The notes beneath the pieces were generated by a model. It was not told the origin of the DNA. It did no database searches and saw only the letters and a program-made list of their open reading frames with translations. A stretch of DNA of 62,987 bases, counting the filler, from Reclinomonas americana ATCC 50394 (taxonomy: Eukaryota): NCBI GenBank assembly GCA_048213135.1. It is 20 parts of 20 records of this genome, joined end to end, with 100 filler letters (N's around TTAATTAATTAA, not from the genome) between each part and the next. Parts side by side here need not be neighbours in the genome. Positions count along the whole stretch, not along the records: positions 48,249 to 49,297 come from AFZH01023942.1; positions 49,398 to 51,954 come from AFZH01023943.1; positions 52,055 to 62,987 come from AFZH01023944.1; 17 more parts are not named here. One strand, 5' to 3'. Shown one piece after another: positions 5,601 to 62,987 of the stretch (positions are counted from its first letter, which is position 1; the number at the start of each line of letters is the position of its first letter). Position numbers and translations under genes: made by a program.

Positions 5601-5951
5601 TTTGACGCAGTCAGTGACGGTGGCGAGCGGCCAAGTGCTGTCAGCAGTGGTGCTGCAGTCTTTCTCGCCGACGGCTATTCCCGCCGTCGCCGGCATCTCT
5701 ATGACTGTGGTCGGCCAGGGCTTTGCTGCAGCGAATCCAGTGACAGTCAAGGTCGTTGAAGGCCCATGCACTGGCACATTGGAAGCTCTGCAAGTGTCTC
5801 TCGTATCCGTGGCCACCTCTACCAGAGTGTCCTTTGTTGCCGACGCCAGCGCTGCTATTGTGGGTAGAACGCGCAGCGTGTGCCTGGCTCCTGTGGGCTC
5901 CAGCACATTTAGCGTTGCGGGTTCAACAGCCGCGCTGACTGTGGTCGACGC
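2675..5951 (+). CDS. Giant repetitive surface protein fragment (same three-domain cycle)
   Basis: ~1090-codon open frame across the whole contig. Motifs YRVCIQFGGSGPFYGLS, FRICLQPGGNPD and FSPIAIPA recur about every 300 aa. Confidence 0.85.
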
Positions 5952-6051
5952 NNNNNNNNNNNNNNNNNNNNNNNNNNNNNNNNNNNNNNNNNNNNTTAAT
6001 TAATTAANNNNNNNNNNNNNNNNNNNNNNNNNNNNNNNNNNNNNNNNNNNN

Positions 6052-7918: not shown

Positions 7919-8018
7919 NNNNNNNNNNNNNNNNNNNNNNNNNNNNNNNNNNNNNNNNNNNNTTAATTAATTAANNNNNNNNNNNNNNNNNNNNNNNNNN
8001 NNNNNNNNNNNNNNNNNN

Positions 8019-40400: not shown

Positions 40401-43400
40401 TGCCACCGGTGATAGCTCCCGAAGCCACAATGTCACCCGGTGTTGTGAGACTGCCAACGCGACCGACACCAGCAATCAGCAGCGAACCAGCGCTGGTGAA
40501 GCTACCAGAAGTTGCCAGTCCAGNNNNNNNNNNNNNNNNNNNNNNNNNNNNNNNNNNNNNNNNNNNNTTAATTAATTAANNNNNNNNNNNNNNNNNNNNN
40601 NNNNNNNNNNNNNNNNNNNNNNNTCGAGCCCGCTTGTACCAGACCAGCAGTGGTCACACTGCCAGCCGATACGAGACCAGTGACAGTCGCACTTCCGCTC
40701 GTGTCCAACGAGCCGCCCCGAACGACGCCAGCAGCAAGCACTGTGCCACTGGTGGTGAGGCTGCCGGCCGTGACGAGACCAGCAGACTGTATAGTACCGG
40801 CAGTAGTCAAACTGCCACCCATGACAACGCCCACGGCCACAATGGTGCCGTTGGTCGCCAGACTGCCACCGGAAACCAGGCCGCTGGTGGAGATTAGTGC
40901 CGCCTGCACCCAACCACTCGTAGTAACACTTCCGCCAGTCACCAGTGCTGCAACCGTCAACGTGCCACTGGTGCTCAGCAAACCACCGACAACAGCGTTG
41001 GCTGCGACCACGGTTCCGGCAGTGCTCAGGCTGCCACCAGCCACAAGGCCCGCTGCACTCATCACGCCACCCGAGATGACACCGTTGCCACCGGTCACAG
41101 AACCGTTGGATGAGATGGTGGCACCGAGCAGCCGGCCAGCAGTGGTCACACTGCCACCGGTAATAATACCAGCCACGGTGGCGTCGCCAAGCGTTGCAAA
41201 ACTGCCACCTGTCACCAAACCAGAGGCCACCAGGGTTCCGCCCGTAGAGAAGCTGCCGCCAGTGACTAAGCCAGTGACGGTAGCCGTCGCAGAAAGCGTT
41301 ACTGCTCCGCCAACAGACAATGCACCAGTCACAGTGGCCGCCGTCGCTGTTACGCCACCGTTGAGTGTTGTCGATCCAGTAGTAGTTAGAGGTCCGGTAA
41401 CAGACACCGAACCACCAAAGGTTGATGCGCCATTGCCAACGGTGAAAGGTTGCGCGTTGTCGACAGAGACTGAAGAGCTGAAGCGCACAGGCGCAGTGGA
41501 CGTGAGCGCACCATTAAGCGTGGTCACGCCTGCCACAACCAGTGCGCCGTCAGCGGTCAACGTAGTTGTCGCTCCCACAACTCGAATGTCGCCGGTGAAC
41601 GTCGACGAGCCGCCAGCAACAGCAAGAGCGCCATTGAGTGACGTGAGTTGACTCACGGTCAGCGTGCCGCCGAGAGTGGCGGCTCCCGAACCCACCGTGA
41701 GAGTGCTTGCATTCTGCAGAACTACGTTGCCGTTAAACGTGGACGCGCCAGTCACTGTCAGACCGGCGCCGGCAGTTACGAGGCCGGCAATACTGAGAGC
41801 GCCACCGAATGAACTGCTGCCGGAACCAACGACCAATTTTCTCGTACCCGTGATGCTAACATCGCCGTCAAAGGTGGCCACACCTGCCACTGACAGAGTG
41901 CTGGACAGTGCGGCCGCGCCTGTCAAGCTGAGTGCGCCTCCGAGAGTCGTGACACCGCCGCCACCAACCTGCAAACAAACCATCATCGACAAGTAATGAG
42001 TTGGAAACGCACACTCACGGGATACAGCCGAGGAAACACGAGGCAACTCACCCAGAGGTTGCTGCTTGCACCAGTGACAGAGAGGGTGCCAGCAACGGTC
42101 GCACCGGCTGCGCCACTCAGAGCGCCGTTGATTGTCGCGGCACCAGTCACGGACAGAGTGCCACCAAGGCTGGTTGCTCCTCCGCCAACAGTGAGAGTGC
42201 TGGTGGGTCCGGAAACGGCGACTGGGCCAAGGAATGTGGCACCCGTCATTCCGGTCAACAAGCCGGTGACTTGAACCGTGGATGCGAATGTCGCCGGTCC
42301 ACCAAACGCTGCAGCTCCCGTGCCGACTGTAAATGTGTTNNNNNNNNNNNNNNNNNNNNNNNNNNNNNNNNNNNNNNNNNNNNTTAATTAATTAANNNNN
42401 NNNNNNNNNNNNNNNNNNNNNNNNNNNNNNNNNNNNNNNGGATCCTTGCACAGACACGGCGCCGCTGAACGTCGCGGTACCGGCTACGCTAAGATTGCGC
42501 TGAACCGCCGTGTCGCGCGTCACATTGAGATCGCCGCCGAACGACACCAAGCCAGTACCAACAGTCAGCGTGTTTGGCGACGCAATCGACACACTGGCCG
42601 AAAACGTACTGTTACCGCCGACAGTAAGCGTACTGAGCAGTGACGTGGCCTGTGCCACCGACAAGGTGCCTCCCAATGTTGCGGCACCTGTGCCCACCGT
42701 CAACGTGCTCGCACCGGTAATGGTGGTGTTGGACAGCGAGGTGGTCCCGTTGGCACTCAGCGCCGCATTGAAAACCGCTGAGCCGCCGACCACCAGCGAC
42801 GATTGCAGCGACGTGGCGCCAGCAACATTCACCGTGCCACCGAGAGTGACAGACCCGGTGCCCACGGTGAACGTGCTCGTGGCGCCAGTGATCGCCACAC
42901 TGCCGGCGACAGCCAACGTACCACCGAGAACCGTGGCCCCCGTGCCCACTGTCAGGGTACTCGCTCCCGCCACTGAGACGCTGCTTTGGAAAACCGACGC
43001 GCCGCTAACGGAGAGGGCGCCACCGAGGCTCGTGGTACCGCTGGCCACCGACAGATTGCGCGTGCCGGTAACATTGACGTCGTTGTTGAATACAGAGGTG
43101 CCAGTGACGACCAAGTTGCCGCCAAGGGACGTGGCACCACCGGCGACCACCAGCGCTGCAGTGCCTGGCACAGTCACACCGCCCAACATAATACTGGCTC
43201 CAGTGACCGACAAGGCGCTGCCAAGGTACGTGGAGCTAGTCACGCTCAAACTCGACGACAGAGTAGTGACGCCTGACACGTCGAGTGTGCCTCGCAGCAC
43301 TGTAGGGGTTGTCGTGGCCACAGTAAACGCGTTGTTAATGGTTGTCACACCAGCCACCGTCAGCGTGCCGCCGAGAGTGGAGGCCCCACTCGCCACAGTC

Positions 43401-46400
43401 AAATTGGCCGCCCCAGTGAGCGACACGTTGCCGGCCACACTTAGAGTGCCTGCCAGATCAGAAGCGGTGAGCAGGCGCAGTACTTAGCACTCGCGATGAC
43501 GTCCCACGACGCACCTGTGACAGTCGTAGCAACGACGGGGATGGTCATCAAGTTGACTGCGGCATGACCGAGAGTGATAGCAGTCGGTTGCAGCCGCATG
43601 TACACATCCACACCCATTTTGAGCTCCAGAATACTGGAGGCAGTGAGTTCCGCCTGCGGTGTGTGGCGTGAACACATATTCTTGGCATGTGCAACTCGCA
43701 GAAAAACATGCATCAAACAACACAAATGGGAAAACTGCAAAGCGAACCTCAGGAGCACTGGCCAGCCAACGATTCGGTGAACTTGTCGATCCGTTTGCTC
43801 CGAGTGTCAACAGTACGTCACCATACGCACTGCTTCGTCGCTGCAGCGCGATTGTCTGCCCCACTCCATCGATCACAACTTGCGAAAACTGCGTAGCAGA
43901 CACGCGAGCCACTGAGGTGATCTGGCTCGTCGACTGCAGCAGAGTCTGTGCTGAGAGCAGAGTGATCTGAGTGGTGCCATTGGTGCCATCGGCCGACACG
44001 ACAAAGCTGTTTGTGGCTTGCAAGTTGACGTTGTTCAGAGCCGTGTCGGCATTCCACTGCGCACCACTCTTGTACACAGTGAATGCCGTGGACAAGTCGG
44101 CCTTTTGCACTTTGAACTCCTGTGGAACAACATGGAATTCAGAATAAGAATATGCACGACGAAGTGATTGCGAGTCACGCAACAAGTCCTTGAACCGCAG
44201 TCGATGTCGCTGTCCCGACTGATCCGAGAGTGATGGTGGTGGATGTCACTCCGAAACTCGACGCCGTTGCTTGTACCGATGTACCCTCAATTGTTACCTG
44301 TCAAAGAGAGAGATATATCAATGACCACGTCAAATCTCCAGCGTAAACACGCGACGCACAAGTGGAGAGGCCTGGCCGGAGGCACCAATCGCCACATTGC
44401 CGTTCACGCCAATGCCGTTGCCACGTCCGCCCGTAATGCGCAGCGTACCGCCTGCCGTGTCCGTCACTGCACGCGCAGTACGAGCCAACACAAACTCCGT
44501 TGAAGAGTCCGGCCCAAACTGTACTGTGCTACCAGCGGTGGCAAGGACGCGTGACGTGACGGCCAGTGACAAATCGCCGGCAACCTGCACCTTTGTTGTG
44601 AGGCACAGTCGCGTGCAAAATCTACACACAGTGGACTGCGAGGCTCGAACCTGGGTCGTCGCTGACGACAGTACTGTACTACCGGCTCCCGAGCGACCAA
44701 CTGTCACACTCTGTGCATTGGTCACACCGATATTGACAGTACCTGGCGTGCCAACACCAGCACCAGCATCCACATAACTGCGACATTGGAGAAACAAAGA
44801 GAAAGAGAGAGATTAGTACAAGGGCAGGAGCTTGGAGGAAGAAGCTAAACAAAAGCGAGCAACAAAACATTGAACCAGCCGTGAAGCCCCCTGAGGAAGC
44901 GTCCTGACCGAGCAGACGAATATCGGAGCCAGCGGCACCAGCAACTGTCGGTCGTGTGAGTACAAAATCGCCGACAGCAGCAGTTGTGCCAAACAGAAGG
45001 CGCTTGGTGGGTGGATCCAATGTCAAGTCGCCTCCTGAAGATGTCACCGTGGACGCCACAGTCAACAGGCCTCCAATAGTTACAGAGCTTGCTGCGGTGA
45101 CCTGTGTGACACGAAAGGGGGGGCGGATGAGAAACATCATCGATTAGTCCGACGAGAACGGGAGTTGGCGTAGCGGCGACATACCGGGCCGAGAAGAGCC
45201 GTCGTCGCGCCAACACGACCGATTTGTACAGCAGGGCTCGTACCGGCTGTGCCTATTTGTACAGCCACTGACGCATCAATCACGACACTCCGTGCCTCAG
45301 TCATCACCTACATGCGTTGCCAGGTGTGTGAGCGAGAGGAACACGGACACCGTTGGCAGCAGCTGTAAGCAGCAGCGACGCAACGGCATTGGTACTCGAA
45401 GAGCCCAAAATGACATTCGCGGACACCACATTAGCGTTGGTGCCGGGCGACGCAGCCAGCCGGACAGTACCGCCGAGTGCATTGGCACCAGTCGGAGTCG
45501 GACGAGTAACAATAAACTCACCGCCGTCGGGGAATCCAAGCAACAACTTGCTTGACGGCGCAAGTAATGCCCCAGCGACCGACGTCAATTCCAAATTGCC
45601 AGCCACCTGGAGAGAAGAGACCATGTGTGACGCGACCATTGCAACGAGGGGGGAGAAAGCGACCACGTGCACATACTTGAACATTACTGGAAAATACGGT
45701 AGCGGCGCCGACCTGGACTTGTGCGGTATTCGCCGTGCCCAGCAGAAGATTGCCGGCGGTTGCTCCGCTACCGCCGGTGAGTACTCTGTACGGATTTTGT
45801 ACATTGGCGAATCGTGAGAAAACCCCACGCACAATAATACGAGATTAGCGGGCAATGAGACGCAACAGATTGCCACCCGTGTTGCCGGGATTCGGCTGGC
45901 CAGTAATAGTTGTGATGGTGGCCACTGGACCCGTCGTGAAATTGGGACGAGTGATGGTGATGTTGCTGGTGGCATTGCCGATAGAAATGGTTCCATTTTG
46001 TGGCTGAAGCGACAGTGTTCCGGCTGAATTCTTAACTGTCGCCACATCGATGAAGGATCCGATCGTCAACTGCAGGTGGTGGCGCACAAAGTAAAATCGG
46101 TCAAATGTTTGTTACTTTTGGTCGGAAATACGAGAGAGCGACGTACCGATCCCAGAATGGATGTGTTGACAGCCGCACTGCCAATGAAAATGGCAGGCGC
46201 CGTCGGAGCAATGTAGACAGCAGTAGCTGAGTCGACAGTGGTGGACGTGGCCGACAGAAGATTGGCCTGCGTACAGACGTCAAGGTCAAGAGGTACACAC
46301 ACACACACACACACACACACACNNNNNNNNNNNNNNNNNNNNNNNNNNNNNNNNNNNNNNNNNNNNTTAATTAATTAANNNNNNNNNNNNNNNNNNNNNN

Positions 46401-46517: not shown

Positions 46518-48148
46518 GACCGGCACTCGTCAGACTGCCAAGTATCAACTTGCCATTGGCTGCCACACCAGTGCCTGGCAGAATTACCACATCGAGGCCC
46601 ACAGACGCTGGCGCGGTGAGACTTGGCCGCGCAAAGGTGAAAACCGGCTGACTGGTGTTGCCCAGGGCGATGGAGCCCGTGGGCGACTGCAGCGAATTGA
46701 ACGTGATGGCAGTGCTGCTGGAAAACACGACAGACGACAAGGTTGTTGTGCCGTCGAATATCACGGGACCTTGGAAGCGCGTGGCACCCGTGGGGTTGCC
46801 AATAGTGACCTGTGAATAGAAGAAACGAAAGACCAAGCAGGGCAATAAATAGCCAGCTCATCACGCGAGACACTAGTGACGTCAACAACGGCAGTAACCT
46901 GAGTTGGGTTCTGAGTGGCAATCAGCACGTCACCACGAGTAAAGTTGCCGTGGCCGCCTTCGATCACACTTTACGCAGGAAAAAAAACAGACACCAGGTT
47001 AGCCGTGCGGCGCATGTGCGCGTGCGTGTGTGCAATGACAAAAGTAGCACAATCACTGACGCACACATTGCCACCGTTGAACACTGCGCTCTGGCCGTTG
47101 ATGATCAGGTCGTCTCCGTCCAGCAAATCAGTGCGTGCCGGACGTCGCAGCGTGAACGCTCCGGTGGCGTCACCAAACTCAACGGCGTTTGCCGTGCTTC
47201 GAATAGTCAGTGGTGTATTTGCCGTAGCACTTGTCACAACGTCGGTGGCCAGTGAGGTGTCGACCTACGAGGGCGTGGAGGTGGTGATTTAGCTGATACG
47301 ATCTAGATTTCACAGAGTCGGCCGAGAAAAAGAAAACGCAACAATTACAGGCTTTCTTGCACCCGGACTAAGCACGATGGAGTGCGCGGCCGTGGTCACT
47401 GTCAGGCCGCGTCCAGTCGGCAGCAACTCCATTGTGGCCACCGAGCCTGCAACATTCAACACCAGCTGCGCCGCCGCACCTACACGCCCACAAAGAGAGA
47501 CAGAGAGAGAAGAGCACGCTCAGTCCATTTTCAACGACACAACAGAGGGGGCTTTGTGCACTGACCAGCAACTGGCGTGACGGCCGCAAGCAAGGCATTG
47601 GCAACAGTGCCAGTGACTGTAATCGAGTCGATAAACGCCAGCGCACTCTCCAACTGGAATGAACCGGTTGCTGGAAAGCTCACGACCGGAACGCCGGACG
47701 GATTGTACAACTTGAGCGCTTGCCCATCTGCTTTCCACGAAAAGTACTGCGACATGTCGGTATTGATGCCCATGCGCAGCTCCGAAGTGCTGCTGGCGGT
47801 ACTGTTGGAGCCAGGAGGTCGAATCTGCAAAGCAATCAGGCGCAAGGCGAGGCCAGCCAACAATTGGAGTGGCACACGCACCTCCACCGCACTGCCGTGC
47901 AGCTGCACCCGACCAGCTCTACTGGCGGTAGACACCGACCCGCCGGCCACGTACGCAAGACCGCCATTGATACCTACGGAAGATTACGGGGAAAGAGAGA
48001 GAGAGAGAGAAAGAGAGAGTGAGTGAGTAGGCGCAAAAGTAAAGGCACATCGCGAGGAAATGAACGAACCAGTGCCACCAATCAAAGACGCTGTGCCACC
48101 AGCTGCTGTGGTGCTCGTGCCAGCACGGATCTCGACACCGCCGCCAGG
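37429..48148 (-). CDS. Giant G/S/T/A/V-rich beta-repeat (fibre/adhesin-like) protein, spanning five contigs, both ends missing
   Basis: Open frames across 37429-39053, 39154-40523, 40624-41969 and 42440-43480, with repeats GLVTGGSLTTAG and LTVGTGATTLGGTLSV. The N-terminal region 43500-48148 is split by many short introns (e.g. 44120-44183, 45786-45866, 47265-47342). Confidence 0.8.
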
Positions 48149-49273
48149 NNNNNNNNNNNNNNNNNNNNNNNNNNNNNNNNNNNNNNNNNNNNTTAATTAA
48201 TTAANNNNNNNNNNNNNNNNNNNNNNNNNNNNNNNNNNNNNNNNNNNNAAAGCAGGTGTGTGACCTTGCTCCTCTTGATCTCTCTTTCCTTCTTCCCTCC
48301 CACTCACCTCATTCATGCAGGTCGTGCATGTCATAGAGAGCGTGGCGTGGGTGGGTGGACGCATGCGTGTCGTGATGTGCGACATGGTGGCCTGGCCGGT
48401 GGATCGTTTTCAATCCCGGCTGGCAAGTCGGAGCAGATCGATGATGTGCGCTTCTTAGTTGCTGCTGTCGCCGCCAAGTAATGATACTGGTGGCCATGGG
48501 AGACTGCAGACGCGCGCGTGGCCTGGTGCGTACGTGTTCTGCATCTGCGTTGAGGAGTAAGTTGGTGAGACTTGGAGATTGACTAACTCAAGTCTGTGTG
48601 ACAGGCGTGCTGGCAAGTGACTCGTCACTGGCATGCGAAGACACGTGGTTCCGTGCCACACAGTGCATGCATGAGACAATGCACCGACCGACTGTGAGTG
48701 TGATTGAAGGCACGAGGCATTGATTGTGACGTGGATGAGAGGAGGCGAGTCTCACGACGCTCCATCGCTGTGCACGTGCTACTGTACTGGTCGCTGCTCT
48801 CCTGTTCCCTGTGACTCTCCATCAGCGTCGTACCATCATGACGTGCACCTCGTCAGCTTCGCTGTGGGCCGAGCCACGGAGGTGTGCGGTTTCGATGACT
48901 CGGTGCGGTGGCTTCAGCACAGCTGGACCACAGCTGCATATCCAAGCAGCCCGACATTCCAATCCTCGTTGGCAGAGAATGCAGGTCAGTCAAAAGAGAG
49001 TGTCGCTGGTCAGCAGCACGGTGCAGTGGAGCGCCACCTTGTGCCACCACCACCATGCTTGACCATTCTGCCGATTTCTCATCGACGAGTCACATGTCGG
49101 TCTTTGAAAGCTCACACGCATCAAAGAAGCCACGTCGCTCACACTGCCGGTTGCTGTTGATTGCTGACTGCAGCCTGGCGAGGGATGGACGACGTCTCGG
49201 AGCAAGGCGGGAGAAGAAAGGCGGGAAAGGGTGACAATCCCGAGCGAGCAAGTCACACACACACACACGGGGA

Positions 49274-49874
49274 ATGGCAACAAAGGTGTGAATGTGTNNN
49301 NNNNNNNNNNNNNNNNNNNNNNNNNNNNNNNNNNNNNNNNNTTAATTAATTAANNNNNNNNNNNNNNNNNNNNNNNNNNNNNNNNNNNNNNNNNNNNACT
49401 CCCGACGGTCAGCATATCGTGAGTGGCGGTAGGGACAAAACGGTGAGAGTGTGGTCACTGACGAGTGGAGAAGAAGTGCGACGACTAGAAGGACACACTG
49501 GATGGGTGTCGTCTGTCACCATCACCTCCAATGGCCAGCATGTCGTGAGTGGGAGCGAGGACAGCACCGTGCGGGTATGGTCTCTGGAGAGTGGCGAGGA
49601 GGTGCGGCGGTTGGAGGGACACACGCACCTGGTGATATCCGTCGCCGTCTCTCCCGATGGTCAGCACATTGTGAGCGCGGGTGGCTACGACGAGACCGTG
49701 CGAGTGTGGTTCACACCGCGTGGCCTTGCTCGCTCTGAACTCGACGCTGCGCGCTCGGCCATGCATGCCGTGCAGGAGATGCAGGAGGAGGAAGTAGATT
49801 CACGATGCCTTCCCGAGCTGGTTCTGCGCTGCTTTATCGTCGAGGATGCCGAGGTCGTCCTTTTCCGGTGCTGA
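49274..49874 (+). CDS. WD40 repeat protein, array copy 1 (exon 1 MATK 49274-49285; middle lost in gap)
   Basis: ATGGCAACAAAG|GTGTGA before the gap. After the gap are the last ~2.5 WD repeats and the tail TPRGLARSELDAARSAMHAVQEMQEEEVDSRCLPELVLRCFIVEDAEVVLFRC*. Confidence 0.85.
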
Positions 49875-52054
49875 GTTGGTGAGTCGGAGAGAGGGAGAGC
49901 GGTGGCTGCTGGTGATTGTGAGTTGTTTTTTCGTGTCTTGCGAGGGAGAGTGGGTGGGGGAAGAGAGGACGATTGAGGGAGAGAGAGAGGTCATTGATGA
50001 AAAATTGTTCTCTGTGTTTGTTGCCCTTTCATGTGAATGATAGTCTGCGGTCGTGAAGGATGTCTCCCTCTGTGTGCGTATCTCTTTCTCACCTCCGTTT
50101 TGTGAGCAAGCTCGATGAATCACCTGGGAGTCTCTTGCGTTTTTTTGTCTTGTTGTGAAGTCTGTTGTGTGTGCACCTTATTCGTGCATGTGTGTGTCTC
50201 AGGAGAGCGAGCCGCCGATGATTGTTTCCCTCGCGTCTTGTTTGCACACTTTCTTGGCACCGCTGTACTCGCTTTCCATTGTGCACGTGCGCTGCGGACA
50301 TTCTTCTTCCGCCCTGAAGAATGCCTGTCTTTCAGCTCTCTTTTTCCTGCCTCCTGCAGAGTCTATCTCATTCTCCGCCATCTCGCTGCCTTTGTGCGCT
50401 CATCTGCTTCCCCAGCCATCCACCCCTCCTTGCCGCACGCTCGAGGTCGAGCTGCTGGTCCGCTCACCGTGTTCCGATTGCCATCCTGCCAGTCCATCAT
50501 GGTGAGTTTCCCGATGCCGAAGTGTGTGAGGTGGCATACCTGCATACTGACTCTGCTCCTTCTCTCCCTTGCAGGATGGTTGTGTGAGCATCCCTCGCCT
50601 TGCCTCTTGCCCAAACGCGTGTTGGTATCAGGTGCTGATCGGTGTGTTTGTCAGTGAGACAGAGCAGATTTCTCTCCCCGTCCTCCATTCTTTTTTCTCA
50701 CAGCACACCGGCATGCAGAGGCCATGGAAAGCATGTCGTGGCGTTGACAGGCGTGATGTGCATTGCCCGTTGTCGACCGTCACCTCACTCACTCGGCTCC
50801 CCACTCGCATCCCACCGTGAACTCAGCAGGTGTGTGGCCTTGATCGTCCTGATCTCTCTTTTCTCCTTCTCCTCCCACTCACCTCATTCATGCAGGCCAT
50901 GCATGCCACGGAGCGTGGCGTGCCGTGAAGTGCGCCGGTGGCCTGGTCGGTGGATCGTTTCAATCCCGGCTGGCAAGTCGGAGCGGATCAATGATGTGCG
51001 CACCTTGGCTGCCGCCGTCTCTGTCGAGTGATGATGCTGGCCACGGGGGACTGCAGACGCGTACTCGGCAATCTACTCATGGGTGGACACATGCGTGTCG
51101 TGTTTCCCGATGGGTGGCCTGGTTGGTGGATCGTTCTCGATCCCGGTTGGCAAGTCGGAGCGGATCGATGATGTGCGCTTCTTGGTTGCTGCTGTCGCCG
51201 CCAAGTAATGATGGTGATGGCCATGGGAGACTGCAGACGCGCGCGTGGCCTGGTGCGTACGTGTTCTGCTTCCGCGTTGAGGAACAAGTTTGCGGGACTT
51301 GAAGATTGACTGACTCCATTCTGTGTCACAGGCGCGCGTGCTGGCAAGAGGCATGCGACATGACCACATGTTGTTCCGTGCTTCACAGTGCATGCGTGAG
51401 ATGATTCACCGACCGACTGTGAGTGTGATTGGAGGCATTGATTGTGAGTTGGGTGAGAGGAGGCGAGTCTCACGACACAGCTGCCTCGTCCATCGCTGTG
51501 CACGTGCTACTGTACTGGTCGCTCCTCTCCTGTTCCCTGGGACTCTCCTTCTTCGTCGTACCATCATGACGTGCACCTCGTCAGCTTCGCTGTGGGCCGA
51601 GCCAAGGAGGTGTGAGGTGTCGCTGACTCGCTGCTCAATTGATTCTCGGGTGTGCCGTGGCATCAGCACACCAGGGCCACAGCTGCATATCCAAGCAGCC
51701 CGACATGCAGTCCTCGTTGAGAGATAATGCAGGTCAGTCGAAAGAGAGTGTCGCTGGACAGCAGCACGGTGCGGTGGAGCGCCACCTTGCGTCCACCCTG
51801 CTTGTCCATGCTGCCGATTTCCCATCGACAAGTCCCATGTCGGTCTTCAAAAGCCCACAAGCATCAACAAAGCCACACTATCGCATGCTGCTGTATGTTG
51901 TGTGGCTTGCTGGCTGCAGCCTGGCGAGGGATGAGGGACGTCTCAGAGCAAGGCNNNNNNNNNNNNNNNNNNNNNNNNNNNNNNNNNNNNNNNNNNNNTT
52001 AATTAATTAANNNNNNNNNNNNNNNNNNNNNNNNNNNNNNNNNNNNNNNNNNNN

Positions 52055-52352
52055 AGAGGCACGCCTGGTTACACAGAAACAGTTTAAGACGGGTGACATG
52101 GTGCGCTGCGCGCGACTCCGTCCGCCATTTTCACACACACACACAAGCGCGCCCACAACCCGCGAGTACATCCACGCACGTCGTGCGACTCACCATGCGA
52201 GACGGCGACGAGCAGGATGATGACGCACAGCAGTGGCACCAGGAGACGAGAGGCGACTGCGCAGAGGGAGGCGGAGAAACAATCAGACAAACAACAAAGG
52301 AGAGTATGAAGCTGACGCCAGCACGGCACCACTCACCATGTTTGGTGGACAT
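52055..52352 (-). CDS. 5' exons of a secreted protein (signal peptide)
   Basis: MSTKH|VASRLLVPLLCVIILLVAVSH| with two GTGAGT donors and a GCGCAG acceptor. Runs into the gap. Confidence 0.65.
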
Positions 52353-52798
52353 TGTTGTTCACTGCAAGGGGGTGGATGGGTGATGGCGCTTCTTTGATTG
52401 TTGCGTGTGTGTGCGTGTGGGTGCGGTGCGTGCGTGTTCGATTTTGCGAATCTCGTTTTTCCGAACACTTGTCCTCCGCAGGGTCGCTTGCTGCTCGGGG
52501 CTCCTCCATCCCAGATGATTGCGATCTCACTCTCTTTCTCTCCGTGTCGGCGAACCTCGTCAATGTGCATCACTTCGACTGCACTTCGCGACGTCGATAT
52601 CAATTAATTAATATTCTGCTCGAGCGCTCACGAGCTTCATGAACTGCCACTGCATGCAGTTTAGTCCGTGATATAAATTCTCTAGTACCGCACACACTGC
52701 AATATGCGACTCGTTTGTAGCCTGCAGCTGTCGACGTCGCTGCAGCTGCGCGACAATTGCAAGCCAGGTTGACGCGTAGTACATCGACGTACCACCTC

Positions 52799-53048
52799 CA
52801 AGCGGCCGTTGGACATAGCTGATCAGCGCCTTGTCCTACAACGGGTAAAGGGTCAAGGGTCAAGGGTACAGAAACAACGATTCCACGCGAGCGATGAGGT
52901 ATATAGGGTAGAAAAAGACGCTGATCACACTCACGAATCGGTTCAAGGGTAGAGGGTTGATCAATTGAGGAAGACACTGATTTCACGTGATTTCAATGCA
53001 AATGGACAAATTTAGGCAAGGCGCTGATCAGCTTTACTGCAAGCGGCC
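52799..53048. mobile_element. Possible MITE-like element: ~21-bp inverted repeats 52817-52838 / 53013-53033 with nearby 9-bp direct repeats
   Basis: AGCTGATCAGCGCCTTGTCCTA versus TAGGCAAGGCGCTGATCAGCT (one indel). CAAGCGGCC at 52799-52807 and 53040-53048. AT-richer interior. Confidence 0.4.
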
Positions 53049-53206
53049 ATGCGCGGCACACACCCGAGGTTTCCAACAAGCCGCATGCTGTGGCGAAGCG
53101 CGCGCGGATGTTGTTCGGTCCGTGTCCTGCTTCTCACACACCTTGTCGTCGTCAACGAAGCGCGCGCAAAAACAGCGCCCTCTTCTGTAAGCCTGCCACT
53201 CCCGGC

Positions 53207-54505
53207 ATGGCACGCCTCTCTGCGCCTCTCCTTCTCCTTCTCGGCCTGGTGACCATCAGCTGCCTCCTCATCTCCTCGAGTGAAGCGCAGAAGTTACCGC
53301 CGCGCCTGAGCGATCGTCTCCTCGAGTTGCACTCTGGCGACTTGCTTGCCCGCCACACTCGCATACGAACGCATGCAGTCCACCGCGAGACAGACCGCGT
53401 GTCGGCGGCTGCGGCTGGTCCAGCAGACGATTTCAGTGTCCGCGCGTCACCGTCACCGCTAGCGCCAGCGCCAGCAAGAGTGTACGAGCCCAGCGCTGTT
53501 GCGACGGCGGCTACTGTGTGCACGGGTGAGTTGTGTGGAGAGCGGGGATTGCATTAGATGAACCTGTTCTGTCCCCTCTCCCTCGTGTCTCGCTGACGCC
53601 TTCTTGCAGTCTTTGTGTCGCCGACCGGTTCAACGAATGCCGCAGCCTGTGGCCTCACGGCCGACAACGCCTGTGCCCTCTCCGCGACGGTGCTGTCGTG
53701 CTCATCCGCGCAGTCGTTTGACGCGCAGTCGACCGCGTGGTCACTGTCCGTGCTGATGCTTGGCGGTCTCTACAACGTGACGCAGGCCGGCACTCAGTTG
53801 ACCGTCGTTGGTGAGTTTGTTTGATCCAAGTGGGCGCGCTTACTGTCCAGTTCGATGTCCGCCATTTCTTCCCTCTCCTTGACTCCCCACTCTCTTCCCA
53901 CAGGCCGCTCCGTCTCCGTCTCCCCCTCCAACAACGCAATGACCCCCACCATCCTCGCCGGCTCCTTCAGCGCCTTCAACATTACGCAGTCGGCGCAAGT
54001 CACTTTGTCTGGCCTCTCGTTCAGCGGAGGCTCCGCGAAGGCGCCAGTCATCTGCTGGGCACCGCGGCCGTTGTCTCGCCACAACTGACCTTTTCCAGCT
54101 GCACATTTGCCGATGCAACGGCCGGTGCCATCTCGCTCGACTCGACAGCTGCGCCCTCCACTACGCTACCGCTGCTATTGGTCACTGGCTGCGTGTTCTC
54201 TCGCATCACATCCACCGCCGGAGGTTTGGCGGGTTACGCCATTTCGTTGAACGGCAAGTTTCTCAACGTGACGGTGACGGACTCTTCGTTTGCATCCTGT
54301 GCAAAACTCGGAGCGAATGCCAGCGGAGCCGCGCTTTCTCTGTGGGGTCTCGCCTCCAACGCCACCGTGTCTTTGCAGCGTTGTAGATTTTTCAACAACA
54401 ACGTGGACGCCACCGGTACCACAACCACCAAGTCGATCAGCTATCGAGGTGGCGGTGCGGTGCTTGCTGTTGGCACAGCGCTCTTTTCGGTCAGTACATC
54501 GCAGT
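53207..54505 (+). pseudogene. Secreted right-handed beta-helix (pectin-lyase-like/Pmp-like) protein, frameshifted at ~54050 and truncated by the WD40 unit
   Basis: Signal peptide MARLSAPLLLLLGLVTISCLL. Motifs VFVSPTGS..CG....NAC, FSSCTF, GAALSL, CRFFNN, GGGAV. Introns 53526-53609 and 53811-53903. The sequence switches to array spacer at ~54500. Confidence 0.7.
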
Positions 54506-55755
54506 GCATGCATGTTTGATACTCGCATCCCACCGTGTACTCAGCTGGTGTGTGACATTGTTCGTCTTGATCGCTCTTTCTTCTTTCTCCCACTCAATTC
54601 GTTCGTGCAGGCCGTGCACGCCATGAGGTGCGTGGCTGGGTGGGTGGACACATGTGTGTCGTGTGCGACTTGGTGGCCTGGTCGGTAGATCGTTTTCACG
54701 CCCGGCTGGCAAGTCGGAGCGGATCGATGATGTGCGCACCTTGGCTGTTGCTGTTTCTGCCGAGTGACGATTGTTGTGGCCATGGAAGACTGCAGACGCG
54801 TGCTCGGCAATCTACTCATGGGTGGACTCATGCGTGTCGTGCTGTGCGATGGTGACCTGGTCGGTGGATCGTTCTCGTCCCGGTTGGCAAGTCAGAGCGG
54901 ATCGATGATGTGCGCTTCTTGGTTGCTGCTGTCGCCGCCAAGTAATGATGGTGATGGCCATGGGAGACTGCAGACGCGCACGTGGCCTGGTGCGTACGTG
55001 TTCTGCTTCTGCGTTGACGAGCTAGTTGGCGGGACTTGAATTCATGAAGATTGACTGACTCCATTCTGTGTCACAGGCGCGCGTGCTGGCAAGTGATTGG
55101 CCACTGGCAGACAAGCAGCATGACGACACATGGCTCGTTGCATCGCAGTACATGCATGGGACGATTCACCGGCCGACCGTGAGTGTGATTGAAGGCACGA
55201 GGCATTGATTGTGACGTGGATGAGAGGCAAGTCACACGACACAGCTGCCTCTTCCATCGCTGAGCTGCTGTGGTGGTCGCTCCTCTCCTGTCCCTCGTGG
55301 CTCTCTTTCTTCCTTGTACCATCATCAACCTTGCTGTGGGCTGGTTCAAGGAGGTGTGAGGTTTCGATGACTCGGTTCTCATTGGATTCTTGTGACGACA
55401 TGAACAACAGGGCCACAACTGCACATCCAAGCAGCCCGACATGCCAGTCCTCGTTTAGAGAGAATGCAGGTCAGTCGAAAGAGAGTGTCGCTGGACAGCA
55501 GCGCGATGCAGTGGAGCGCCACCTCGAGCCACCACCCTGCTTGTCCCATCTGCCTATTTCTCATCGACGAGTCCCATGTCGGTCTTCGAAAGCTCACACG
55601 CATCAAAGAAGCCACGTCGCTCACACTGCCGGTTGCTGTTGATTGCTGACTGCAGCCTGGCGAGGGATGGACGACGTCTCAGAGCAAGGCGGGGGAAGAA
55701 AGGCGGGAAACAGTGACAATCCTGAGCGAGCAAATCACACACACACACACGGAGA

Positions 55756-56930
55756 ATGGCAACAAAGGTGTGAATGTATGCGCACTTTTGCGTGGTTGTT
55801 GTCTGTGCGTGCATTCGTGTGCTTGTTCATGTGTGCAGTTGTTGTTTGTGTTTATGTGCGCGTGTGCCTTCGAATGTGTGCATGCGTCTCACCGCGAGTG
55901 ATTGATACAGATCATTCAGAGTCTCGATATGGTGCGATTCGTCGTCATCACTCCCGATGGCAAGCACATTGTTGGTGGGTGTGTGGACGGAATTATTCGA
56001 GTGTGGTCTCTGGCGAGCGGGGAGGAAGTGCGACGGCTGGAAGGCCACTTTTTCATTGTGTATTATGTCGCCGTCACCCCCGATGGTCAGCACATCGTGA
56101 GTGGAGGTGGAGACTGTACCGTACGTGTGTGGTCGCTGGCGAGTGGAGAAGAAGTGCGACGGCTGGAGGGACACACCAGCACGGTGAACTCTGTCGCCGT
56201 CACCCCTGATTGTCTGCAGGTCATCAGCAGCAGCATCGACAAGACAGTTCGAGTATGGTCACTGGTGAGTGGGAAGGAGGTGCGACGGTTGGAAGGAGGC
56301 ACTGGAGTGGTGTATTGTGTCACAGTCACTCCCGATGGTCAGCACATTGTGAGCGGGGGTGGAGACAAAACCGTGCGGGTGTGGTTGCTGATGAGCGGGG
56401 AAGAAGTAAGACGGTTGGAGGGACACACTGACACGGTATACTCTGTCGCCGTCACTCCAGACGGTCAGCACATCGTGAGTGGCGGTGGGGACAGAACGGT
56501 GAGAGTGTGGTCACTGGCAAGTGGACAGCTAATGCGACAGTTGGACGGACACGCCCATGCGGTACATTCTGTCGCCATCACTCCCGACAGTCAGCACATC
56601 GTGAGCGGGAGCGGGGACAACACAGTGCGGATGTGGTCTCTGGCGAGTGGCGAGGAAGAGCGACGGTTGGAGGGACACACAGAATGGGTGTCGTGTGCGG
56701 CCGTCTCTCCCGATGGTCAGCACATTGTGAGCGTCGGTGGCCACGACGAGACCGTGCGAGTGTGGTGCACGCCGCGTGGCCTTGCTCGTTTCGAACTCGA
56801 CGCCGCGCGCGCGGCCATGCAGGCTGTGCAAGAGATGCAGGAGGAAGAGGTAGATTCTCGATGCCTTCCCGAACTGGTTCTGCGCTGCTTTATCGTCGAG
56901 GATGCCGAGGTCGTCCTTTTTCGGTGCTGA
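55756..56930 (+). CDS. Seven-bladed WD40 protein with conserved C-terminal tail, array copy 2 (exons 55756-55767, 55911-56930)
   Basis: MATK|IIQSL..., then seven ~42-aa repeats EEVRRLEGHxxxVxxVAVTPDGQHIVSGxxDxTVRVWSLASG, then the tail to TGA. Confidence 0.92.
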
Positions 56931-58736
56931 GAAGGTGAGCCAAAGGGTGGGAGAGAGAGATGGCTGCTGGACAATGTGAGTTGTTTTTCGTGTCTTGTGT
57001 GGGGGTGCGGGTGATCATGCGGGATGGAGGTGGGGAAGAGAGGATGACGGAGGAGGAGAGAGAGGTTGTTGTTGATGATGAATTGTTCTCCCGTGCATGT
57101 TGTCGTACCATGAGAATGACAATGCGCGGTCGTGAAGCATGTCTCCCTCTGTAGGCGTGCGTTTTCCTCACCTCAATGCGTGTGTGCAAGTGCAATGACG
57201 CTTGGGAATCTATTGCGTATTTTTCGTCTCTTTGTGATGTCTGTTGTGCGTGCATCTTTTATCGCTGATATTCGTGCCTTATGAGAGCGAGTCACCGTTG
57301 TCTGTTTCCCTCGCGTCTTGTTTTTCGCACCTCCTTGGCACCGCTATACTCTGCTTCCCATTGTGCACGTGCGCCGCGGACATTCTCCTTCCGACTGCGA
57401 AGAATGCCTGTCTTTCAGCTCCCTTTTTCCTGCCTCCTGCAGAGTCTATCTCTTTCTCCGCCATCTCCCTGCCTTTGTGCGCTCAACTGATTCCCCAGTA
57501 ATCCGCCCCTTCTTTCTGCACACGCTCGAGGTCGAGCTGCTGGTCCGCTCACCGTGTTCCGACTGCCATCCTGCCAGTCCATCATGGTCAGCTTCCCGAT
57601 GCCGAAGTGTGTGAGGTGGCATACCTGCATACTGACTCTGCTCCTTCTCTCCCTTGCAGGATAGTTGTGTGAGCGTCCCTCGGCTTGCTTCTTGACAAAC
57701 GCGTGTTGGTATCAGCTGCTGATCGGTGTGTTTGTCAGTGAGACAGAGCAGGTTTCTCTCCTCTTCCTCCAGTCCTTTTGCTCACAGCACACCGACATGC
57801 AGAGACCATGGAAAGCATGTCGTGGTAATGACTGGCGTGATGTGCATTGCCCGTTGTCGACCGTCACCTCACTCACTCAGCTCCCCACTCGCATCCCACC
57901 ATGCACTCAGCAGTTGTGTGGCCCTGTTCTTCGTGATCTCTCTCTCCTCCTTCCCTCCCACTCACCTCAATTATGCAGGTCGTGCACGTCATGGAGAGCG
58001 TGGCTGGGTGGATGTACACATGTGTGTCGTGATGTGCGATGGATGGCCTGGTCGGTGGATCGTTTTCAATCCCGGCTTGCAAGTCGGAGCGGATCGATGA
58101 TGTGCGCTTCTTGGTTGCTGCTGTCGCCGCCAAGTATGGTTTCGTGCCTCACAGTGCATGCATGAGACGATTCACCGACCGACTGTGAGTGTGATTGAAG
58201 GCACGAGGCATTGATTGTGATCTGGGTGAGAGGAGACGAGTCTCGCGACACAACTGCCTCTTCCATGGTCACTCCTCTTCTGTTCCTGGTCATTTCTCTT
58301 CTGTTCCGCGTGGCTCTCTTTCTTCCTTGTACCATCATCGTGCCCTCATCAACCTCGCTGTGGGCAAGGAGGTGAGGTATCGATGACTCGTCGTGCTTAC
58401 TGCCAACGTTGCACATCCAAGCAGCACGACAATCCAGTCTTCGTTGGCAGAGAATGCTGGCCGGTCTCGATGCAATGGAGCGCCAACCTCGTGTCACCAC
58501 CACCACCTTGCATGTCTGGTCTGCCGATTTCGCATCGACGAGTCCCATGTCGGTCTTTGAAAGCCCACACGCATCAACGAAGCCACATCGTTCACACACT
58601 ACCGCATGCTGTGCGGGGTGCTGGCTGCAGCCTGGCGGGGGATAAACGACGTCTCAGAGCAAGGGGGGAGAAGAAAGGCGGGAAACAGTGACAATCCAGA
58701 GCGAGCAAATCACACACACACGCTCCGTCACGGAGA

Positions 58737-59880
58737 ATGACAACAAAGGTGTGAATGTGTGCGTGGTTAGTGTCTGTGCGTGCATCCGTGTTCCATGTGT
58801 GTGGTTGTTGTTTGTGTTGTTGTGCATGTCTCCGAATGTCGCTGAGCGTGTGCGCAGATCATTCAGAGTCTCGCTTCTGCGGCGCGGTCCATTACCGTCA
58901 CCCCCGACGGCAAGCACATTGTGGGTGGATGTGAGGATAGCACCGTTCGAGTGTGGTCTCTGGCGAGTGGGGAAGAAGTACGACGGCTGGATGGACACAC
59001 CGACATGGTGACATCTGTCGCCGTCACAAATGATCAGCACGTCATCAGCGGCGGCTGCGACAACACAGTGCGGATGTGGTCTTTGGCGAATGGGGAGGAG
59101 GTGCGACGGCTGGTTGGACACGCCGGCACGGTGACGTCTGTCGCCGTCACCCCCGATGGGCAATACATAATAAGTGGGAGTGACGATGAGACAGTGCGAG
59201 TGTGGTCTCCGGCGAGTGGGGAAGAGGTGCGACGGCTGGAGAGACGCGCTGGATGGGTGTGCTCTATCGCCATCACCCCCGATGGTAACCACATCGCGAC
59301 TGGGAGCGGGGACTGCACCGTGCGGGTGTGGTCGCTGGCGAATGGCACGGTGCGACAGCTGGCAGGTCACACTGCAGCTGGGTGGGTGAATCGTGTCGCC
59401 GTCACCCCTGATGGACAGCGCATCGTGAGTGGGAGTGGAGACCGCACCCTGCGAGTGTGGTCACTGGCGAGCGGGGAAGAGGTGCGACGGCTGGTTGGAC
59501 ACGCCGGCACGGTGTCGTCTGTCGCCGTCACTCCCGATGGTCAGCACATTGTTAGTGGGAGTGGAGACAGCACCGTGCGAGTGTGGTCGCTGGCGAGCGG
59601 CGAGGAAGTACGACGGTTGGATGGACACACTGGATGGGTGTCGTGTGTGGCTGTCTCTCCCGATGGTCAGCACATTGTGAGCGCGGGCGGCAAAGACAAG
59701 ACGGTGCGAGTGTGGTGCACGCCGCGTGGCCTTGCTCGCCTCGAGCTCGACGCCGCGCGCTCGGCCATGCGAGCTGTGCAGGAGATGCAGGAGGAAGAAG
59801 TAGATTCACGATGTCTTCCCGAGCTGGTTCTGCGCTGTTTCATCGTCGAGGATGCCGAGGTCGTCATTTTCCGGTGCTGA
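58737..59880 (+). CDS. Seven-bladed WD40 protein with conserved C-terminal tail, array copy 3 (exons 58737-58748, 58858-59880)
   Basis: MTTK|IIQSL..., seven repeats and the same tail. Phase-0 GTGTGA..CGCAG intron at the same position as in copy 2. Confidence 0.92.
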
Positions 59881-60946
59881 GTGTGAGTCGAAGGGAGGGA
59901 GAGCGGTGGCTGCTGGTGATCGTGAGATTTCGTGTCTCGTGCGGGAGATTGGTTGGTCATGCGGGACGTGGAGCAGTGGTTCAAGAGTTGCGTGATCGTG
60001 TCGTGTGATGTATGTGTGGTTGTCTGACGAAGCCTGACCGCGTGTTTAACACGCAGGTGATGATGGATTGGAGACCACTTGCTCGGTTTTAGCTCGACAT
60101 GAGTGAGTTTGTGAGAAAGTGTTGTGTGAGCGTTTTTTCTTTCTGTTTACTTCGATACGGTGTTGTGGTGGTTGTCACTGCTGCGTCTCCTTCGTTGTTG
60201 TCGTTGTGTGCTGCAGATGAACAGAATGTCAGCAATCTCTATTGTGACGCACAGGACGATGAACTCCAGGTGCACGACAGAGATCAGGAGCGTGAGCAAG
60301 AACACAGGGACAGTTTGTTCACTGTCGTCTTCCACGATTCAAGCCGCGTGTTGACTGACGGCTGATAAGGGTGGCCCATGCAACGCGGGACCGTTGTCTT
60401 CGAGTGCATCGTTGTAGCTGGTGAGCTTCCGCGTGAGCAATCACTCATCTGCACGGCAGGCGACGACTCGCTCCCTCTCTGCAACTGACAGAGTGCTGAT
60501 CACCGACGAGACCCCTGCTGCAACACCGATTCAACAACAGCAGCAACAAACTTGCTTACGCAAACAACAACACAGCTACATAATCGTGAGTTGGGCACCA
60601 GAAACTCAGACATCGAACACGTGATACACTTGCTGCGTTGACGAGAGGGCGAGGCTGCTGACGAAAATCCACGCGCATTCAACAAGCGTTCATTTCTGTG
60701 ACAGCAATGCGAGCTCAGGCATGCACTGGCAAAGCGCCATCGGGAATCGACATAATCTTGGTGACGATTCGAACAAGCTGCGCTCTTCGGAAAAACTTTC
60801 CATGTACGCGCTTTCATCACTTCGTCATTTCTGCATCCCGGTGAGCACAGACAAGCACACACGCTCTCTCTCTGTCTCACTCTCCCCTCTTCCCATCACT
60901 CGCTCACTCGCTCGCCACGCGAATGCATATGTGCAGCGGAATCGCG

Positions 60947-62090
60947 ATGCACTCGAACATCCTGCATTTCGCCGCCTTTGTTGCGCTGGCCCTCGTGGTG
61001 GGCGCACTCACTGTGCCTGCTGCGAGTGCCCTCTCCCGCGACACTTTCTCTCCCTCGGTGCGTGTGTGTTTGTTGCCTGACATGAGCGTGCATCACGACT
61101 CACGTATGTCCCGCTGGGGACGCACAGGGGAACCGCACACCCTCCTCGCGCATTCACCTCTCGTTCCACACCACTCCCTCCTCTTCTCATTCTTCGTCGG
61201 CGCACCATGACGTGCTGCCTGCGAGTGTGCGCACGGTGGAGGATGCGGCGCTGTTTCACGTGCGTCGCCTCGTGAGTGCGGAAATGTCCGCCGCGTCTTC
61301 GACTCGCACTCGTCGTCAGCGCAGCTTTGGAGTGCAAGCGACACCTGCTGGTGAGTGGTGCAGAGAGCAAGAGAGCGGGAGAGTGGGAGAAGCGTGTTTC
61401 CGTGTCCTGTTTTTTCAGCATCGCGAATCATGCATGTCGGACTTGCAATTGCATTGTTTCTTGCTGCTCTCTCCGCTTCGCTCTTCCTTCTTGCCCATGA
61501 CAATCACTGATAGAACACCACAGCGTGTGGTCTTGCGTGGTTTCTATCAGGGTCATGGCACACACAGTTTTTCCGATGCGTGTCCGATGTGTGCTCACTC
61601 TTTACTCTCTCTTCTCCTTCCCGCCGCCTCGCAGCCGAGTCCGCCTCCGTCTCCCTGCATGTGGCTCGTGTGGTCACCTCACTGCACGGTGGGCGCGTCG
61701 CAGCCGCGCACGTCCGCCAGTCGGTCCACGGTGTGGAGGTGTTGAATAGCGAAGTTCGCATGCTTCTCCACCCGACCTCGTTCCAGTTGCTGTCGGCCAC
61801 TGGATCGCTGGTCGACGTCGCCTCCTTCACTCCCGCCTCCGAGCACCACGTCGCCTCCTCGTCTGTCGATGGCGCCTTCGCGGTGCCCGCCGACGTCGGA
61901 CAGTACAAGCAGGCCCTGGTCGTGGCGCTGAACGCTCACTTCGGCGCCGACAACGCCGTCAGCGTCGACGACCTGCACGTGGAGGAGTTCACGCGCCACG
62001 GTCTGCACAGCGATGTGTGGTTGTTCACGAGTGAGGGCGCGGCGGTCTCTGTGCGCAGTCCGCACGGCAGTCGCGTGAGGAAGGTGTGCA
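60947..62090 (+). CDS. N-terminal part of a secreted metalloprotease precursor with FTP (fungalysin/thermolysin) propeptide-like region, M36/M4-like; continues beyond window
   Basis: Signal peptide MHSNILHFAAFVALALVVGALTVPAASA. Exon with AAHVRQSVHGVEVLNSEVRMLL..LLSATGSL resembles the FTP motif. Catalytic HExxH is not in the window. Confidence 0.55.
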
Positions 62091-62987
62091 AATGGGGAAG
62101 TGCTCGTCTCTTCTGTCACTCGTGATTCACCAATCCCTGTTCTCTTGTGTGTACTTGCCTTGCTCCTCACTCTCTGTCTCTCCCCCGGTACTCCTTGAGC
62201 CTGCTCTCTCCTGTTGCTCTCTCCTTCGCTGGTGCCTCATCAATCCACTTTTCTCTTGTGTGCACTCGCCTTGCTCCATCACGCTCTCCATTCTCGCTTT
62301 CCCTCACTCCCTCCATTGCTCATTGAGCCTGCTTTCTCTTCTTGCTCTCTCCCTCGCTCACTCATTCTCTCCACCAGTCTGCAACTCTCTTGTGTGTTTG
62401 AACGTGCCTTGCTCCTCGCTCACTCTCTCTCTCTCTCTCTCTGTTGCTTTCTATTCCTCTCTCTCTCTCTCTGCGCTCAATGCTAAGCGGACCAGAAATC
62501 CACTGTTCTCTCTCGTGTGACCGTGCCCTGCTCTCTCTTTCTATCTCTGTGCTCTCACTGTTCCACTCTTCTCTTCTCCCACTCTTTCTCCCCTCTCCGC
62601 ATCACCTTAGCTGAGTGCACTGTGATGAAACTGACTTAGATGATCCTTGTTTCTCAGCTGATGCCCTCTGCCGTCTTCTCCCTCGAACCAACTTCCCCGT
62701 TATGCCCTCTCGCTTTTCTCCTCATTCGTCATCCGTTTTCTTCCCTTCCACTCATCTTTCCTCTCTTAATGCCGTGCAAGCACCCGTCCAGTCGTCACTC
62801 TCCCTTTATCTCATCGGGCCTCTTGTCCTCTCCCTCTCTCCTAGTTCCGCGCCCCTTCCCTTCACCCTCCCTTCTCCCTCCCTTCATTCCTTCCCCTCAC
62901 TCCTTCCCCTTCCCCCTTCCCCTCACCCCTTCCCCTTCCCCTTCCCCTTCCCCCTTCCCCTCACCCCTTCCCCTTCTCCCCCTTCTC
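62090..62987. repeat. Pyrimidine-rich low-complexity tract ending in (TTCCCC)n; probably a long intron
   Basis: C/T-dominated sequence following a GTGTGC donor-like site. Confidence 0.7.

Follow-up and report, generated by a model that had tools for sequence, protein, structure and literature searches.

A WD40 gene family with diverging top-face residues and a constant orphan tail in Reclinomonas americana

The 62,987-nt stretch of the Reclinomonas americana ATCC 50394 genome (GenBank assembly GCA_048213135.1) analyzed here, referred to below as the window, carries on its plus strand a cluster of related WD40 genes. These are intact genes under selection, each encoding a single beta-propeller with a paralog-specific top face and a constant C-terminal tail. 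The explanation that we favor, with moderate confidence, is that they belong to a lineage-specific family of small cytosolic WD40 adaptors that diverge in specificity and share a partner of the tail. In such a family, the top face of each paralog would bind a different ligand or peptide, the tail would tie all paralogs to one common partner, and the proteins would be exchangeable with one another as adaptors, or as substrate receptors, of one shared machine. By analogy with the receptors that combine WD40 repeats with a short box (WD40-SOCS-box and F-box-WD40 proteins), the most likely class of partner would be a ubiquitin-ligase adaptor. A role in immunity or in the recognition of non-self is conceivable but improbable.

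The 63-kb window contains 18 linkers, each consisting of 44 N, TTAATTAATTAA, and another 44 N, and is therefore a set of joined contig pieces, of which three bear on the WD40 family (48249-49297, 49398-51954, and 52055 to the end of the window). With the product of one of the complete genes (g2) as the tblastn query, three WD40 loci were found on the plus strand, at 49398-49871, 55911-56927, and 58858-59877. The cluster comprises two complete genes (g2 and g3, encoding 343 and 344 aa), one 3' fragment (g1), and one promoter-only copy, in units of ∼3 kb. The duplication covers the entire unit: the upstream regions are 81 to 87% identical, the introns are 79% identical, and the kilobase downstream of the coding region is 87% identical between the units of g1 (U0) and g2 (U2).

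Both complete copies are predicted to consist of a 12-nt first exon, one intron, and a second exon that encodes seven WD40 blades, the tail, and the stop codon. In g2, these are exon 1 (MATK) at 55756-55767, which lies in the best-conserved stretch of the unit (95% in the interval 55677-55796), a putative intron (GTGTGA...ACAG) at 55768-55910, and exon 2 at 55911-56930 (product P0001, 339 aa); in g3, they are exon 1 (MTTK) at 58737-58748, the putative intron at 58749-58857 (79% identity to the g2 intron), and exon 2 at 58858-59880 (product P0002, 340 aa). Exon 1 of g1 (ATGGCAACAAAG, encoding MATK and followed by a GT donor; 49274-49285) is the same as that of g2. The g1 start codon and donor site (49274-49287) come directly before a linker (49298-49397), the contig piece ending at 49297, and the 3' part of the gene sits on a separate piece at 49398-49874. 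What survives there are the last 2.5 blades (the end of blade 5 and blades 6 and 7), the 54-aa tail, and the stop codon (49872-49874), with 79% tblastn identity to residues 182 to 339 of P0001. The ATG, the donor GTGTGAATG, and the acceptor CAG/ATC are kept in every copy that includes them, and the first Met in the frame of g3 exon 2 comes no earlier than blade 2, so that an upstream mini-exon is needed. The description of a 4-codon exon (MATK or MTTK), one intron, and a seven-repeat exon, put forward in an earlier sequence-only reading of this DNA, agrees in both complete copies with the coordinates, with the 126-bp period detected by TRF, and with the blade alignment.

The products have the features of a single closed propeller. 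In Pfam, PF00400 reaches 236 bits (cut-off, 27) and covers seven stretches of P0001 and seven of P0002, and the best 25 of the 55 matches to these proteins are to beta-propeller families only. The AlphaFold2 model of g2 exon 2 (mean predicted local distance difference test [pLDDT] score, 92.4; predicted template modeling [pTM] score, 0.87) contains 27 blade strands and a short N-terminal strand, so that the ring is closed by the mini-exon together with IIQSL, which line up with the strand EEVRRLEGH found in the other blades. In this model, the outer strand that blade 7 lacks would come from the N-terminal strand, giving a closed seven-bladed ring with velcro closure. As the propeller would already be complete with the 4-codon exon, the model leaves no room or need for an extra N-terminal domain. 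A search for NACHT or other domains in 13 further plus-strand open reading frames (ORFs), namely, 11 intergenic ORFs of at least 80 aa within the units and 2 from the neighboring gene, returned only sub-threshold Pfam matches (E values of 0.001 to 0.045, below the curated cut-offs). The proposal that these are stand-alone, NACHT-less propellers is thus upheld by the closed ring and by the lack of a significant Pfam family in the 13 ORFs. No hydrophobic stretch resembling a signal peptide is visible by eye at the MATKIIQSL start, no predictor having been run.

Database searches with the full protein retrieved only generic WD40 proteins, with at most 59% identity, in which the propeller was covered and the tail was not; the exact g2 and g3 sequences were absent from the protein collection searched. 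The nearest solved structures found by Foldseek (E values of 1e-32 to 1e-30, root mean square deviation of ∼1 Å over 283 to 287 columns, and 39 to 40% identity) are bacterial repetitive WD40 proteins or designs with similarly consensus-like blades (PDB entries 5yzv from Thermomonospora, the "highly repetitive propeller" 2ymu, and 7big and 7bie of WRAP-T). These proteins, which are bacterial or designed, leave the protist tail uncovered, and an intron of the spliceosomal type sets the protist genes apart from them. The structural matches also include WDR5, LIS1, and the C-terminal domain of Tup1, which share the single closed seven-bladed propeller. Propellers of this type bind peptides or proteins through the top face. 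WDR5, LIS1, and Tup1 are conserved single-copy proteins with ∼26 to 33% identity to the protist family, whereas the protist genes are tandem and combine a diverging top face with an orphan tail.

Another group of WD40 proteins from jakobid-containing lineages comprises Gcp1 to Gcp3, which, in the available portion of PMC8134430, are described as Pex7-like proteins that co-occur with the mitochondrial type II secretion system in jakobids, heteroloboseans, and malawimonads. In the same portion, they are said to be well conserved across species, related to Pex7, and often equipped with a type 1 peroxisomal targeting signal (PTS1). Judged by that description and not by sequence, the proteins studied here are different, as they end in FRC or MYL, are encoded by tandem paralogs, and have consensus-type blades.

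For a comparison of individual repeats, the three genes were cut into 17 blades in a 42-aa register, with position 1 being the residue after GH. Column entropy across the 17 blades is highest at positions 2, 3, 5, 21, and 23, of which positions 3 and 5 flank the conserved Val of the D-A loop, and positions 21 and 23 flank the conserved Asp of the B-C turn. According to the available portion of Paoletti et al. 2007 (PMC1805685), the HET-E codon pairs 7/9 and 25/27 are positively selected and lie on the top face of the propeller; positions 3, 5, 21, and 23 were fixed in advance from that study as the partition for the tests below. Between g2 and g3, 20 of the 28 sites at these four positions differ, versus 54 of the 231 sites that remain when all seven variable columns are set aside (positions 2, 3, 5, 6, 20, 21, and 23; Fisher test, 7e-7), and orthologous blades require at least 10 residue changes in 10 column-groups at the four positions versus 22 in 95 column-groups elsewhere. 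All ten residue pairs listed in the sequence-only reading are present in the blades, and its placement of the variation in the top-face loops was correct, to the extent that the D-A loop and the B-C turn match the HET-E sites given in that portion of the 2007 paper. Its description of the scaffold as nearly identical did not stand: the mean residue identity of blades within a gene is 62% in g2 and 65% in g3, with 0 of the 21 pairs in each gene reaching 85%, and blade-to-blade DNA identity is 57 to 88%.

The blade framework and the tail are under purifying selection. Over all blade pairs, NG86 estimates of nonsynonymous (dN) and synonymous (dS) divergence in the framework are 0.15 and 0.78, respectively. 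In our own maximum-likelihood implementation of a GY94-type codon model, with a shared synonymous rate and a fixed tree of the 17 blades, omega is 4.95 at the four top-face sites and 0.31 elsewhere (likelihood ratio test [LRT] against an omega of 1, 34.4; p = 4e-9). When only orthologous blades are used, in three independent groups (the blade-7 triple, blade 5 of g1 with blade 5 of g2, and the blade-1 pair) whose branch lengths are free, the four sites have an omega of 3.3 (LRT, 6.79; p = 0.009). These results argue moderately, though not decisively, for a top face that has evolved at more than the neutral rate since the paralogs diverged.

About half of the synonymous sites differ between blades (dS of about 0.8), a GENECONV-style permutation analysis detected no globally significant conversion tract between blades (the best global p value, 0.058, belonging to the blade-7 orthologs), and the blade number is exactly seven in both complete genes. 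Given these three observations and the low blade identity, it is apparently selection at the protein level, and not recent homogenization, that keeps the framework conserved. The sequence-only reading had invoked the shuffling of near-identical repeats known from the fungal HET-E/HNWD genes and had called for gene conversion tests on individual repeats; with identities below 85%, this level of synonymous divergence, and no significant tract between blades, neither shuffling nor conversion of single blades is borne out.

Exchange on a larger scale is another matter. In a sliding comparison of U2 with the unit of g3 (U3), identity is 84 to 95% in the 5' untranslated region (UTR) and promoter, 67 to 79% in blades 1 to 6, and 87 to 90% in blade 7 and the tail, so that blades 1 to 6 are the most divergent part of the unit, and the coding core exceeds the intron and flanks in divergence. 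Framework dS is 0.52 to 0.93 in blades 2 to 6 versus about 0.3 in blade 7 plus the tail, and divergence in the flanks is 0.14 to 0.22; synonymous differences number 64 of 137 in blades 2 to 6 versus 16 of 61 in blade 7 plus the tail (Fisher test, 0.008). The identity of the odd copy changes along the unit (chi-square, 27.5; 8 degrees of freedom; p = 0.0006): upstream it is g3, with 118 unique sites versus 42 and 36, in blade 7 it is g1, with 11 versus 3 and 6, and in the tail no copy stands out. The units have a mosaic history. The pattern would fit homogenization of the flanks, blade 7, and the tail between neighbors with the core spared, and it would equally fit replacement of the cores from other, unseen copies; either way, it implies segment-scale exchange between family members.

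The 54-aa tail (56766-56927 in g2 and 59716-59877 in g3, as delimited by sequence comparison and, for g2, the AlphaFold model) is predicted to comprise a helix, after which comes the conserved DSRCLPELVLRCFIVE core. Each pair of genes differs at 4 of the 54 residues, with a dN of 0.03 to 0.05, a dS of 0.29 to 0.35, and a dN/dS ratio of about 0.1, indicating strong purifying selection; the tail is almost unchanged between copies, as the sequence-only reading had it. In the full AlphaFold2 model, residues 288 to 310 form the tail helix with block-mean pLDDT values of 82 to 91, and the last 11 residues have values below 50; a model of the tail by itself (mean pLDDT, 52.5) was unusable. A homodimer prediction for residues 280 to 339 gave a score of 0.00, which speaks neither for nor against binding.

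Among 1.84 billion representative proteins, the only HMMER match of the tail is a 116-aa Reclinomonas americana protein derived from an expressed sequence tag (EST) (E = 6e-12). It is 65% identical over 107 aa that comprise the last blade and the tail, keeps DSRCLPE.VLRCFIVE invariant, and has a different C-terminal end; its EST origin implies that a family member is transcribed in a jakobid. In Pfam searches of the three tails and this Reclinomonas fragment at E values up to 10, only a chance-level match to RRM_1 appeared (E = 0.093). Among shorter proteins, a word-index search with the tail yielded nothing that scored (2 candidates), a metagenome scan with the tail alignment yielded 350 stretches fitting the pattern, of which none was confirmed by tblastn, and the best scores in a search of the ESM Atlas were 0.75 to 0.76, under the lead level. 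Judging from these searches, DSRCLPE.VLRCFIVE can be regarded as an orphan motif.

Several points weigh against a family of adaptors with diverging specificity, and some of them would suit ordinary duplicated WD40 paralogs, an explanation that we consider rather unlikely. In such paralogs, the top-face loops would be unconstrained (omega of about 1), the copies would be drifting or subfunctionalising, and values above 1 would reflect saturation, synonymous rates that are uneven, gene conversion, or a small sample. If the model allows the four top-face codons a synonymous rate of their own, their omega drops to 2.5 and loses its significance (LRT, 1.75; p = 0.19), so that the codon-model check proposed for the variable sites gave a significant excess over 1 in two of the three tests and failed to do so in the third. 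By parsimony on a framework-derived tree, the same codons accumulated 60 nonsynonymous and 16 synonymous changes, which is about neutral, with no single site significant (best p = 0.069), and the NG86 estimates there are a dN of 1.37 versus their own dS of 1.17. All these tests cover 17 blades of 3 genes and use our own implementation and a fixed tree; gene conversion can inflate omega, and the mosaic history violates the assumption of a single tree. Moreover, 36 WD40 proteins of diverse origin have a consensus that varies at these loop positions too; loop variability alone is, therefore, generic to the WD40 fold, and unrelated proteins share it. A physical tandem arrangement is shown for g2 and g3 only, which lie 2981 bp apart on one uninterrupted piece, adjacency across the linkers being unproven. 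What speaks against ordinary paralogs is the omega of 3.3 in orthologous blades, for which no deep tree is assumed, and the greater divergence of the coding core than of the introns and flanks, the reverse of an ordinary conserved gene. For the tail, the points against shared docking are that its fold is uncertain, that no Pfam family was matched, and that, specifically, no ubiquitin-ligase box was detectable by Pfam and LP-hydrophobic-P is absent.

One of two other explanations of the cluster, which we regard as improbable, is an innate recognition repertoire without a nucleotide-binding oligomerization domain (NOD), in which the propellers would sense pathogens or non-self, the tail would dock a death or defense effector, and the repeats would be shuffled as in HET-E/HNWD. 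The form of it in which the top faces are diversified by selection and inter-copy exchange and one orphan tail leads to a common effector seems to us just as improbable. With the NACHT-WD40 NOD-like receptors (NLRs) HET-E, HET-D, and HNWD of Podospora anserina, the proteins share blades of the 42-aa GH...TPDGQ..SGS.D.T.R.W type, and the most variable pairs, flanking the Val of the D-A loop and the Asp of the B-C turn, correspond to the four selected HET-E codons in the available portion of PMC1805685; the omega above 1 in two of three tests, the constant tail, and the tandem genes with inter-copy exchange point the same way. No HET, NACHT, other NOD, or effector domain was found by Pfam in the proteins (among the best 25 of 55 matches) or in the 13 plus-strand ORFs. 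High internal repeat conservation was defined by Dyrka 2014 as more than 85% identity, and fungal blades are about 85% identical, versus 62 to 65% in the protist, where no blade pair within a complete gene reaches 85% and synonymous sites are half saturated. There is no significant between-blade conversion tract and no sign of shuffling or of variation in blade number, which is seven in both complete copies, with four units visible, and the protist tail is not seen in any other protein family. The other explanation, to which we likewise assign a low probability, is that the proteins are substrate receptors of cullin-RING ubiquitin ligases, with propellers that pick substrates and a tail that is a divergent adaptor-binding box, similar to a SOCS box or to an F-box helix. 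The tail core LPELVLRCF presumably bears a loose likeness to the F-box and BC-box helices. In joining a variable WD40 domain to a short, constant element at the C terminus that would serve for docking, the proteins parallel the multigene families of WD40-SOCS-box and F-box-WD40 receptors, the former with a domain scheme set out in the available portion of PMC4812663. Unlike those receptors, the three tails and the Reclinomonas fragment gave no SOCS-box or F-box match at E values up to 10, and the Cul5-box motif, stated in that portion to be LP-hydrophobic-P, is not matched by LPEL; only ∼20 residues follow the LPE motif of the tail, which is shorter than an F-box (PF00646, ∼45 aa), and the uncertain fold adds to these objections. 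The same combination of variable recognition and constant docking would link the proteins to the expanded and positively selected families of ubiquitin-ligase adaptors in nematodes and plants, which Thomas is said to have described in 2006.

If a NOD-less repertoire were the true explanation, it would represent a receptor architecture apart from NLRs that uses the same four blade positions as the fungal HET-E. If the pattern holds on the full gene set, the variable-top-face mode of WD40 domains, known from fungal NLRs, would arise without a NOD near the base of the eukaryotes, attached to a conserved tail that could be used as bait for the partner; if it fails, this is one more lineage-specific cluster of WD40 paralogs. 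The practical value is modest: the genes now have a clean model, the tail yields an orphan motif, and the hypothesis that one docking partner is shared can be put to the test.

The noncoding parts of the units have features of their own. The promoter and 5' UTR region of g1 (U0; 48249-49273, plus strand) is 81 to 87% identical to the three other upstream copies and lies on its own contig piece. The upstream-only copy (U1; 50803-51954, plus strand) is 80% identical by blastn to 54521-55690 and is cut by a linker ∼66 nt before the expected ATG; the count of three paralogs and a fourth upstream-only region given in the sequence-only reading is correct, and the distance of ∼75 nt noted there is not. 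Two contig breaks fall within ∼70 nt of a WD40 gene start, which suggests that the repeated family was not resolved by the assembler. That the genes are pseudogenes or an assembly artifact was considered and rejected in view of their intact frames, the purifying selection, and the location of g2 and g3 on one uninterrupted piece. The upstream region of U2 (54521-55755, plus strand) contains a 178-bp internal tandem duplication (54641-54978) that is also found at 50918-51244, with 82% identity between the two copies; upstream of U3, there is only a partial match to this region (57887-58136), and the duplication appears shortened or absent there. A gene at 53207-54520 (plus strand), with a signal-peptide-like MARLSAPLLLLLGLVTISCLLISSSEAQ start, short GT-AG introns, and a sub-threshold match to the right-handed beta-helix (E = 0.001), abuts the homology of the WD40 unit at 54521, and the duplication boundary may thus cut its 3' end. 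Downstream of the coding region, a noncoding block (57300-57900, plus strand; 50230-50800 in the other copy) is 90 to 95% identical between U0 and U2, lacks codon periodicity, and is better conserved between units than the coding blades; it could be a 3' UTR, a regulatory element, or a recent conversion tract. A second gene within 57300-57900 was rejected, since mismatches are spread over the codon positions (16/16/14) and the copies differ by an indel that breaks the frame. Rfam returned no matches in 47000-62987 at E values up to 0.1.

Elsewhere in the window, an ORF of 506 aa (20813-22330, minus strand) has WD40 repeats in its C-terminal third only, its N-terminal part being without a family match; it is unrelated to the tandem family, with 28% identity and a weak tblastn match at 20912-21364. 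An RPF2/Brix ribosome-biogenesis gene (30033-31499, plus strand) has its best relatives, 32 to 43% identical, in amoebozoans, green algae, and animals; by these sequence identities, the collection would appear to contain no close relative of the lineage, in keeping with a deep-branching protist that is probably a jakobid. At 35532-43483 on the minus strand, five stop-free ORFs (568, 574, 489, 607, and 363 aa) each fill a contig piece between linkers, with a sub-threshold FapA beta-solenoid on 39156-40521 as the sole Pfam match; they are probably parts of one giant repetitive gene split by assembly gaps. Two open frames of 1126 and 656 aa at 2623-7970 (plus strand), the first with a TIG/IPT domain, are separated only by a linker and may represent another large gene for a surface or secreted protein.

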